NCBI RefSeq assembly: GCF_003018235.1
Contig: NZ_CP027437.1
Source of the DNA: Escherichia coli
Lineage (GTDB): Bacteria; Pseudomonadota; Gammaproteobacteria; Enterobacterales; Enterobacteriaceae
Direction: 5' to 3' (one strand)
Length of the DNA stretch: 64,000 nucleotides
The notes below the pieces were generated by a model. The model was given only the letters and a program-made list of their open reading frames with translations, did no database searches and had not been told where the DNA came from. Below, one piece after another: positions 53,747 through 54,100 of this stretch. The first letter of the stretch is position 1, and each line of letters opens with the position of its first letter. Position numbers and translations under genes: made by a program.

Positions 53747-53758
53747 TAGCGTCAAAAA

Positions 53759-53786
53759 AGCCCCGGCAAGTTTTATTGTCGGGGCT
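53759..53786 (+). terminator. Stem-loop after glcB (agccccggcaa-gtttta-ttgtcggggct)
   Basis: GC-rich imperfect hairpin just 3' of the glcB stop. Confidence 0.45.
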
Positions 53787-54100
53787 ATGATAGTAACTGC
53801 GGTAGTACATTTATCCCGGAAATAACCGGAGCGATTATCAGGGTTTAACAATATTAAATACCCGTAGCGCATTACTAGCGGGCCTAAAACAACAATATGG
53901 ACATCTTAACGATATTCTGCGCCTGCGTGTGCGGAACAGAAACCCTTACCCGATATACTTGTTATGCCAGAGGTAGCAATTGCGTTAGCAGCGTACTGTT
54001 GCTGTAAAGTATAACTCCTATATTTTACAGTTCAGTCCTCTTTTGCTTATTACAACCTTAAGTATATCAAGCATATAAAGATAATAAGAGACTGAACAAT

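Follow-up and report, generated by a model that had tools for sequence, protein, structure and literature searches.

The DNA analysed here (hereafter the window) is a stretch of 64,000 nucleotides from Escherichia coli contig NZ_CP027437.1 (assembly GCF_003018235.1). The window contains the genes for malate synthase G (glcB) and glycolate permease (glcA), which are both encoded on the plus strand and are separated by a spacer of 354 bp (Table 1). The sequence-only reading had described this spacer as long for a junction inside an operon. Since the remaining glc junctions measure only 10, 4 and 21 bp in one annotated strain, 354 bp is indeed unusually long for this operon. That reading had also noticed a hairpin at the start of the spacer, directly after glcB, which is real and described below, as well as AT-rich, promoter-like sequence. 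The AT-richness was confirmed: GC content drops to 0.29 at 54000-54099, just before glcA, compared with approximately 0.5 in the flanking genes. The sequence is promoter-like in this respect alone; a sigma-70 consensus scan of the spacer (at least 9/12 positions) gave no match on either strand. In the literature consulted glcDEFGBA is handled as one operon.

Of 5426 complete E. coli genomes, 4543 contain the spacer, with a median of one place per genome, and its single copy rules out an origin as repeat or mobile element. Truncated variants correspond to insertions of IS5-like elements or IS1. No annotated feature underlies the spacer in 60 sampled E. coli genomes annotated by PGAP.

Table 1. 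Features at and around the glcB-glcA junction, in window coordinates.
Feature	Position	Strand	Description	Source
glcB	51575..53746	+	CDS, malate synthase G; stop TAA 53744-53746	ORF list, BLAST
glcB-glcA spacer	53747..54100		354 bp, single copy	ORF list, BLAST against E. coli genomes
A6/U tract	53754..53759		A6 just before hairpin 1 on the plus strand; U tract following it on the minus strand	
Hairpin 1	53759..53786	+	GC-rich; AGCCCCGGCAA / loop GUUUUA / UUGUCGGGGCU	inverted repeat search
C0719 candidate sRNA	53801..54022	-	RF00117 match, 222 nt	cmscan (Rfam)
Mini-ORF MSILLF	53884..53904	-	6 codons, inside C0719; a curiosity, not accepted as gene	
36-codon ORF (MDILTIFCAC...)	53897..54007	+	judged not a gene	
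Small hairpin	53915..53936	+	UUCUGCGC/GUGCGGAA; within cross-genus conserved block	MFE folds per lineage
Long imperfect hairpin	53953..54076	+	about 124 nt, 47 pairs (helix of about 60 bp)	folds, inverted repeats
AAGAGA	54086..54091	+	purine-rich, probable weak Shine-Dalgarno of glcA; unpaired, 3' of the long hairpin	read from sequence
glcA	54101..55783	+	CDS, glycolate permease	ORF list, BLAST

E. coli and E. albertii are identical at 94.4% of the spacer (334/354), whereas third codon positions of the same species pair are identical at 77.9% in glcB and 72.5% in glcA. The spacer is therefore conserved above the neutral level and under selection. The last 84 bp before glcA (54017-54100) show zero differences between the two species; the long hairpin's left arm is less well conserved. 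A long spacer is also retained in Klebsiella and Raoultella (397-401 bp) and in Citrobacter (415 bp), with blocks that can be aligned; the Citrobacter spacer carries a 23-nt insertion within the region of the 36-codon ORF. The block ATAAT[A/T]AGAGA[C/A]TGA before glcA, which includes the probable Shine-Dalgarno, is kept in all genera compared. In a GlcB search of genome contigs E. albertii was the only close relative among the matches listed; the other 79 loci listed (Pseudomonas, Burkholderiales and others) were approximately 61-67% identical and lacked a glcB-glcA junction. A scan of metagenome contigs with AATAATTAGAGAMTGA, a pattern too short for the purpose, returned 120 chance matches, none of which adjoined a glcA start.

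Hairpins of the spacer and the 3' end after glcB

Hairpin 1 consists of two arms (53759-53769 and 53776-53786) that form an 11-bp stem with one G.U pair and a loop of 6 nt. It was found in every lineage compared, and it is more stable on the plus than on the minus strand in the window and in four of the six versions from outside the window. Minimum free energies (MFE, kcal/mol, plus/minus strand) are -20.1/-14.7 in E. coli, -18.1/-14.7 in E. albertii, -20.3/-15.4 in Citrobacter and -19.2/-13.7 in Raoultella; in one Klebsiella locus (L084) the two strands are equal. Variable pairs of the stem are kept on the plus strand by means of G.U and turn into A.C on the minus strand, where the stem contains an A.C mismatch in most lineages. 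The A tract 5' of the hairpin is polymorphic in length (A5 in E. albertii, A6 or A7 in E. coli), and a run of A5 or longer is retained in Citrobacter, Klebsiella and Raoultella.

On the plus strand no U tract follows the stem, the sequence there being AUGAUAGUAAC, and a scan of the spacer for terminators of the hairpin-plus-T-run type gave no site on either strand. Published Term-seq data from LB at OD 2.0 place a dominant RNA 3' end at K-12 position 3121590 (-), which is window position 53790 (+), 4 nt past hairpin 1, with a read count of 47630; it was classed as 'primary' for glcB and as 'antisense' to C0719 (PMC7815308, Supplementary file 1). This end was placed by its K-12 coordinate, and the context sequence printed with it is identical to window 53740-53800. 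Among the features of a sense-strand intrinsic terminator for glcB, the GC-rich hairpin and the in vivo 3' end are present and the U tract is absent. Based on the published Term-seq end, hairpin 1 marks the 3' end of the glcDEFGB sense transcript and is not part of C0719.

Downstream, the small hairpin has a homologue in Klebsiella with a UUCG loop. A 6-nt tandem duplication (CTGCGC) occurs at this hairpin in strain BMH-17-0027.

The long hairpin ends 24 nt upstream of the glcA start codon. It has an AU-rich apical stem (54001-54013/54019-54031) and basal arms that are conserved across genera, and it is interrupted by many small internal loops, its longest perfect run being 13 bp and AU-rich. 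It folds better on the plus strand, with MFEs (plus/minus) of -38.0/-32.3 in E. coli, -39.1/-30.9 in E. albertii, -35.1/-23.4 in Raoultella and -39.6/-27.1, -45.8/-29.3 and -39.8/-24.5 in Klebsiella. Compared with shuffled sequences the plus-strand z-scores range from -3.9 to -6.3 overall (E. coli -4.3, Klebsiella and Raoultella -4.7 to -6.3), with at most one of 200 shuffles equally stable, and the minus-strand scores from -1.9 to -3.2. Citrobacter is an exception, with z -1.6 on the plus and -2.6 on the minus strand and an interior that is not significant on the plus strand. For the spacer as a whole z is -3.6 on the plus strand (0/100 shuffles as stable) and -1.6 on the minus strand.

The interiors of the long hairpin share 33-34% identity between genera, no more than shuffled sequences do, and cannot be aligned; taken alone they nevertheless form significant hairpins on the plus strand (z -2.8, -3.3 and -4.3) and not on the minus strand. 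On the mRNA strand, structure is hence kept despite sequence divergence in Escherichia and in Klebsiella/Raoultella, and weakly so in Citrobacter. Within Klebsiella/Raoultella the RNAalifold consensus amounts to -37.4 kcal/mol on the plus and -24.9 on the minus strand. Across genera no consensus emerged from MAFFT and RNAalifold, the left arm of the long hairpin being misaligned, and folds per lineage combined with a strand-neutral alignment of the arms were used instead. The latter gave G.U versus A.C counts of 5:4, 7:4, 10:6, 4:1, 4:0, 5:3 and 4:3; all seven lean the same way, but counts this small are not decisive. Within Escherichia, five of the six variable pairs of both hairpins are still paired on the plus strand through one-sided G.U changes. 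Pairing drops from 99.9% to 88.4% when the structure is mirrored onto the minus strand, a comparison in which the plus structure was taken from the window's own fold, which biases its result towards 100%. An end-to-end pairing test against mononucleotide shuffles was not discriminating, as 15-21% of the shuffles passed.

The C0719 candidate on the minus strand

The sequence-only reading had named a candidate small RNA, C0719, for this region of K-12 and left its ends unplaced. This was correct and the ends could be mapped: the Rfam family RF00117 matches over its full length (model 1-222), scoring 290.2 bits (E = 1.4e-76) where the gathering score is 50. The match lies between glcA and glcB, on the strand opposite to both, and corresponds to K-12 3121358-3121579 (+); a published table lists C0719 at 3119380-3119601 (+) of U00096.2, and its EcoCyc identifier is G0-8912 (PMC7815308). 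E. albertii is matched at 272.7 bits, no hit was obtained in the loci of Klebsiella, Raoultella and Citrobacter, and the family is restricted to Escherichia. C0719 at glcB-glcA is an already catalogued, weakly supported call and not a discovery. That the spacer may hold a small RNA is borne out to the extent that a catalogued candidate exists, on the strand opposite to glc; a genuine sRNA is disfavoured by annotation, expression, 3' ends, promoter consensus, covariation and folding, as follows.

As a genuine sRNA, C0719 would start at a weak promoter near 54022, end at the minus-strand hairpin and U6 (53786..53753), measure about 270 nt and could act in trans, or in cis on the glc mRNA. We regard this as unlikely. 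It is favoured by the full-length match and by the original array-based candidate, dating from about 2002 and still present in datasets, but C0719 is missing from the current K-12 RefSeq record NC_000913.3 and from PGAP output. Its expression is near the floor: in a published RNA-seq table it is below 1 in most samples and reaches approximately 3 at most, where RygC has 27-300. These low reads are nonetheless condition-dependent, being higher in transition and stationary phase. Group II intron retrohoming was lowered by a transposon insertion at 'C0719', whereas overexpression of C0719 gave no biofilm or motility phenotype. No Hfq-binding data for C0719 were found in the literature searched.

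Its ends, derived from arrays, match no promoter or terminator signal in the consensus scans. At the 5' side a -10-like hexamer, TAAAAT, can be read at 54027-54022 on the minus strand, and the sequence upstream of the putative start (54017-54100) is 100% identical to E. albertii, but the -35 is poor and no promoter of at least 9/12 is present. At the 3' side the minus-strand hairpin is followed by U6 in the window and by U5-7 overall, a terminator-like arrangement with an A/U tract conserved in all genera. It lies at least 15 nt past the Rfam 3' end, was not called by the terminator scan and has the A.C mismatch mentioned above in most lineages. None of three published Term-seq conditions lists a 3' end on the C0719 strand; the curation retained only the strongest peak within 100 bp, and if it took no account of strand, a weaker end about 35 nt away on the opposite strand could have been dropped.

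Over the 32 pairs of the RF00117 structure, 13 Escherichia sequences show no compensatory change, two broken pairs and three one-sided G.U changes, the last of which stay paired on the minus strand and count in favour of the candidate. The minus-strand fold of C0719 with the hairpin has a z-score of -0.72, no better than shuffles, and by folding statistics the sense strand is preferred. Klebsiella and Citrobacter, whose loci RF00117 misses, have no counterpart to the 5' third of C0719 (about 53977-54022); the middle of C0719 is conserved and its 3' third poorly so. Overall the pattern fails to follow the candidate's own boundaries, the strongest conservation lying outside C0719, at 54017-54100.

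Taken together this suggests that an independent sRNA is a thinly supported candidate, with the balance against it. Most likely, C0719 is an antisense or divergent transcript made at a low level, or an artefact in which strongly expressed sense RNA was assigned to the wrong strand, and it probably has no function.

Signals in the DNA and small reading frames

Conservation of the spacer could alternatively act mainly at the level of DNA, with an internal promoter and operator of glcA and with the inverted repeats as protein-binding palindromes; such a promoter would let the permease be expressed apart from glcDEFGB. In its favour, E. coli and E. albertii do not differ over the final 84 bp ahead of glcA, GC is only 29% there, and -10-like hexamers (TATAAA, TATATT, TATGTA) occur 22-25 nt upstream of the ATG in all genera. 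In Citrobacter and Klebsiella the basal arms each form a local palindrome of their own, ATACC-N-GGTAT, and given the dominant sense 3' end after glcB a second promoter would be useful. Yet no promoter reaches 9/12 and the -35 positions are not conserved. Sites for sigma-70, sigma-54, CRP, LexA and GntR-type regulators, sought by eye, were not consistent across genera, and the reported LldR and PdhR sites lie at glcD-glcC instead of the glcB-glcA spacer. Nor is there a start site in the spacer among the entries listed in the Cappable-seq and SMRT-Cappable-seq tables, from conditions in which glc is poorly expressed, and the literature consulted handles the genes as one operon. Two palindromic operators would moreover account for the basal 15 bp or so only, leaving unexplained the interiors, which are self-complementary and still form significant hairpins although their sequences differ between genera. 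We therefore consider an explanation at the DNA level improbable.

Several small reading frames were rejected as genes. The plus-strand ORF of 36 codons has no Shine-Dalgarno, its ATG is ACG in Citrobacter, which also has the 23-nt insertion, and its Klebsiella version stops after 12 codons. In MSILLF all six sites that vary within Escherichia are third codon positions, but this periodicity falls together with a CAA-CAA-TAT repeat and could thus stem from mutational bias; E. coli RM9873-C1 has lost the ATG, which Citrobacter lacks as well. The same minus-strand ATG opens an ORF of 66-74 codons in Klebsiella/Raoultella, where it is preceded by a perfect AAGGAG Shine-Dalgarno and where a gene finder called a product of 66 aa. 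Differences in this ORF are mostly non-synonymous, without sign of coding constraint, a 1-nt loop indel alters its C-terminus, and it runs through the hairpin. Although both ORFs exist in the ORF list, and the AAGGAG, the gene-finder call and the third-position changes count in favour, a small protein encoded by the plus ORF, or by the minus ORF from the shared ATGGACAT/ATGTCCAT palindrome, is highly improbable, as neither ORF combines a start codon and a ribosome-binding site with conservation of the coding type across species.

Interpretation and comparison with known systems

The conserved features look like RNA structure of the sense strand. The spacer is probably a structured untranslated intercistronic segment of the glcDEFGBA mRNA, and not primarily the home of an independent sRNA. 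Transcripts from the glcD promoter would reach the GC-rich hairpin 1, where, given the absent U tract, many would end while some read on. Either weak termination or 3'-to-5' trimming as far as this hairpin would produce the ends there, and the outcome would be more glcDEFGB than glcA message. The continuing RNA would carry the small hairpin and the long hairpin, which stops 24 nt before the glcA start and would thereby leave the ribosome-binding site free; we infer that stability, processing or Rho-resistance of the glcA portion of the mRNA is determined by the long hairpin.

More tentatively, the functional element may be an undescribed cis-acting RNA of the sense strand, common to Escherichia, Klebsiella/Raoultella and probably Citrobacter, of which C0719/RF00117 would be a wrong-strand reading. 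It would consist of a leaky 3'-end hairpin after glcB and the stem-loop of about 124 nt by the glcA ribosome-binding site, and would uncouple the permease from the glycolate enzymes via processing, stability or Rho-proofing.

C0719 is still in Rfam and in the sRNA lists on which expression studies and overexpression libraries draw; our analysis suggests regarding it as unverified and possibly wrong-strand. The glcB-glcA junction itself is a compact, testable case of a long untranslated gap within an operon that is under selection, where hairpins conserved in structure rather than sequence may set the ratio of a transporter to the soluble enzymes of its pathway.

Compared with RF00117 from E. 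coli K-12, the window has the same locus, sequence and strand with no sequence differences, and the doubt concerns the family itself (no covariation, very low expression, no mapped 3' end). The minus strand resembles trans-acting sRNAs of the Hfq type in having a hairpin followed by U6-7 and preceded by an AU-rich stretch. It differs from them in the A.C mismatch of the stem in most lineages, in the absence of a recognisable promoter and in lacking a conserved single-stranded seed separable from sense-strand constraints.

Hairpins inside operons, such as the REP of malE-malF, act as partial terminators or exonuclease barriers and create differential mRNA 3' ends and stability. The glcB-glcA spacer is single copy, hence its hairpin is not a REP element, unlike that of malE-malF. 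It does share with this type a stable GC hairpin directly after the upstream cistron, without U tract, and a dominant RNA 3' end a few nt past the stem, and glcA also encodes a membrane protein, for which a lower demand is plausible. RNase III processes long stem-loops between cistrons in rpsO-pnp and phage early mRNAs, for example. The glc helix is unlike these in being broken by many small internal loops with only an AU-rich run of 13 bp as its longest perfect stretch; like them, it is a long imperfect helix, untranslated, located between two cistrons and adjoining the downstream ribosome-binding site.

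The spacer between glcB and glcA

By BLAST, the glcB-glcA junction is present in 4543 of 5426 complete E. coli genomes, with a median of one copy per genome, and no feature is annotated within the spacer in any of 60 sampled PGAP annotations, where its flanks are glcB and glcA. Since the remaining junctions of the glc operon measure 10, 4 and 21 bp, one of 354 bp, which the sequence-only reading had called long, is exceptional; the hairpin it saw directly after glcB (hairpin 1) is equally there, as an inverted repeat. Of the AT-rich, promoter-like sequence it described, the first half holds (29% GC over 54000-54099); a promoter and terminator scan gave zero consensus sites inside the spacer on both strands, so that "promoter-like" means AT-rich and no more. 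As an observation on the spacer, the earlier account is confirmed.

Features of the glcB-glcA region, in window coordinates
Feature	Position	Strand	Description or basis
glcB	51575..53746	+	ORF list, BLAST annotation of flanks
glcB-glcA spacer	53747..54100		354 bp exactly
glcA	54101..55783	+	ORF list, BLAST annotation of flanks
Conserved block 1			A tract and GC hairpin after glcB; cross-genus alignment
Conserved block 2	central, about 53897-53975		cross-genus alignment
Conserved block 3	final ~45 nt before glcA ATG		cross-genus alignment
Hairpin 1 arms	53759-53769 / 53776-53786		11-bp GC-rich stem
C0719 (RF00117) match	53801..54022	-	Rfam; all 222 positions, 290 bits, E 1.4e-76
Long hairpin	53953-54076	+	single imperfect hairpin, 47 pairs
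Long hairpin, apical stem	54001-54013/54019-54031	+

A GlcA homologue search recovered this gene order, again with a long spacer, in Klebsiella and Raoultella (397-401 bp) and in Citrobacter freundii (415 bp). Between E. coli and E. albertii 20 of the 354 spacer positions differ (94.4% identity), with zero differences from 54017 to 54100; in the flanking genes, identity at third codon positions is 77.9% and 72.5%. Judged by such comparisons the spacer appears to be functional, despite the weak support for C0719. The poly-A stretch at 53753-53759, directly before hairpin 1, varies in length (A5/A6/A7), and locus 301-661 of NZ_CP076704.1 has a 6-nt tandem duplication (CTGCGC CTGCGC) in a small conserved hairpin, at the equivalent of about 53916.

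The whole junction is absent from about 16% of complete E. coli genomes: in 883 of 5426, neither the 3' end of glcB, nor the spacer, nor the 5' end of glcA has any match. This agrees with the loss of C0719 scored in several lineages of E. coli and Shigella (PMC3318445). In strain PEC408 (NZ_CM168008.1) an IS5-like ISKpn26 follows glcB shortly past hairpin 1, window similarity stops at about 53793 and other DNA, including a type II Zorya system, takes the place of glcA. An IS1 truncates glcA past its first 87 bp in O25:H4 strain 18044 (NZ_AP022326.1), and dog isolate 19KM1766N (NZ_CP151005.1, 655-954) has an intact spacer and a glcA annotated as frameshifted (pseudogene). An ORF of 1526 codons that starts with TTG (56250-60830, +) lies directly 3' of glcA; its K-12 counterpart is annotated yghJ.

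Beyond Escherichia, a few Klebsiella and Raoultella and one Citrobacter, the nearest relatives stand at about 67% for GlcB and 80% for GlcA and belong, among the matches listed, to Pseudomonas and further non-enteric Proteobacteria. In Enterobacteriaceae the distribution of the glc locus is therefore patchy, which might be due to horizontal transfer. On an ENA metagenome contig (L090; 54-416 and 679-2361), a DUF2810 (yibL-like) gene precedes a permease that shares 89% identity with GlcA; on the E. coli chromosome this is the place of lldP, not the one after glcB.

Placement of C0719 and its support

C0719, the candidate small RNA named for this region in the sequence-only reading, does exist as a catalogued candidate, and its ends could now be placed. 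With K-12 coordinates obtained as 3175380 minus window position, a relation derived from the K-12 mapping locus (L001), the match corresponds to K-12 3121358-3121579 (+); a published table gives 222 nt at 3119380-3119601 (+) in older K-12 numbering. It is antisense to glcB and glcA. The NC_000913.3 feature table lists only yghJ, glcA, glcB and glcG over 3117000-3124000, C0719 not being among them. In the same published RNA-seq table C0719 expression is <1 in most samples and ~3 at maximum, with RygC at 27-300. It is reported up in transition phase, its overexpression had no effect on biofilm, motility or fimbriae, and a transposon insertion "at C0719" lowered group II intron retrohoming, the cause being left unexplained by its authors.

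The RF00117 model matches E. albertii (272.7 bits) and has zero matches at E up to 1 in the Klebsiella, Raoultella and Citrobacter loci. Over the 32 pairs of the Rfam structure, 13 Escherichia sequences show 0 compensatory changes, 3 one-sided G.U changes and 2 broken pairs. That C0719 is a genuine minus-strand small RNA is possible, the best argument being the conserved A tract, which on that strand gives a U6-7 tail after the hairpin; extended to this hairpin, the minus-strand RNA does not fold better than shuffles (z -0.72). The earlier interpretation of a small RNA in the spacer is partly supported: a candidate exists and is located, but on the opposite strand, already catalogued and with weak evidence, and as given the finding is already known.

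Structure on the sense strand

Hairpin 1 is kept in every lineage, its variants being G.U wobbles on the + strand and A.C mismatches on the - strand. A dominant Term-seq 3' end in LB at OD 2.0 is 3121590 (-), with a read count of 47630, classed as primary for glcB and antisense to C0719 (Adams et al. 2021, PMC7815308, Supplementary file 1); the sequence printed around it is that of window 53740-53800, so that it falls at 53790 (+), 4 nt past the stem. The three condition sheets list zero further ends at 31215xx or 31216xx, hence none on the C0719 strand, although curation retained the strongest peak within 100 bp, by which a weak end close by on the opposite strand might be masked (PMC7815308).

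In Klebsiella and Raoultella loci (L084, L085, L087-L089) an additional perfect palindrome, GGCGCCATCGATGGCGCC, follows the glcB stop and precedes the conserved hairpin, about 30-70 nt after glcB (e.g. L084 3603-3680). Further on, these loci have a small hairpin with U5 behind it on the sense strand, AGCGCGACGAUGCGCUUUUUAUGC; nothing in the E. coli spacer looks as close to a canonical terminator.

Fold energies of the two hairpins (MFE in kcal/mol; z, fold energy versus shuffles; + / - strand)
Sequence	Hairpin 1 MFE	Long hairpin MFE	Long hairpin z
E. coli (window)	-20.1 / -14.7	-38.0 / -32.3	-4.3 / -3.0
E. albertii	-18.1 / -14.7	-39.1 / -30.9	-3.9 / -2.65
Klebsiella L084	-23.7 / -23.8	-39.6 / -27.1	-4.7 / -2.4
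Klebsiella L085		-45.8 / -29.3	-6.3 / -3.0
Klebsiella L087		-39.8 / -24.5	-5.7 / -2.1
Raoultella (long hairpin, L088)	-19.2 / -13.7	-35.1 / -23.4	-4.8 / -1.9
Citrobacter	-20.3 / -15.4	-28.8 / -26.9	-1.6 / -2.6

By fold energy the long hairpin architecture recurs in other lineages, its basal arms lying within conserved blocks. In the interiors between these arms Escherichia shares 33-34% identity with the other genera, which is the level of shuffled sequence; taken alone, the interiors still form significant hairpins on the + strand (z -2.8 in E. coli, -3.3 in Klebsiella, -4.3 in Raoultella; on the - strand -0.5, -1.7 and -2.1), Citrobacter being the exception. RNAalifold gave -37.4 kcal/mol on + and -24.9 on - for the Klebsiella/Raoultella set. 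An internal glcA promoter is possible, the 84 bp before glcA being invariant and containing -10-like hexamers, but it is unable to account for these self-complementary interiors and lacks a consensus match in the scan.

Among the Escherichia sequences, pairing is 99.9% for the two-hairpin + structure, in which one-sided changes rescue 5 of 6 variable pairs, and 88.4% for its mirror on the - strand; the comparison is biased, since it was the window's own fold that supplied the structure. In a strand-neutral count, G.U versus A.C appositions favour + in 7 of 7 sequences, modestly (5:4 up to 4:0). That the sense strand carries the constraint is favoured, not proven.

Small ORFs were rejected as genes. 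The 36-codon + ORF at 53897-54007 has no Shine-Dalgarno; Citrobacter lacks its ATG and has 23 nt inserted, and the Klebsiella version is only 12 codons long before its stop. In Escherichia a minus-strand ATG at 53904 opens the 6-codon ORF MSILLF (53884-53904, ATG TCC ATA TTG TTG TTT TAG). The six sites of this ORF that vary in 13 Escherichia sequences (53884, 53887, 53890, 53893, 53896, 53902) are all third codon positions, and at four of them E. coli and E. albertii differ synonymously. One E. coli strain and Citrobacter have lost the ATG, however, and the periodicity overlaps a CAA-CAA-TAT repeat. The Klebsiella/Raoultella ORF from the same ATG (66-74 codons, perfect AAGGAG Shine-Dalgarno) shows non-synonymous changes and a frameshifting indel.

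The spacer as a probable structured part of the glc mRNA

Most likely the spacer is a structured intercistronic segment of the glcDEFGBA mRNA, in which the hairpin after glcB would mark the principal 3' end of the sense strand, with a long conserved stem-loop preceding the glcA ribosome-binding site. The former may act in partial termination or trimming, and the structure could serve stability or processing, or shield the 354-nt untranslated stretch from Rho. Only this sense-strand structure, together with a possible wrong-strand assignment of RF00117, might merit follow-up.
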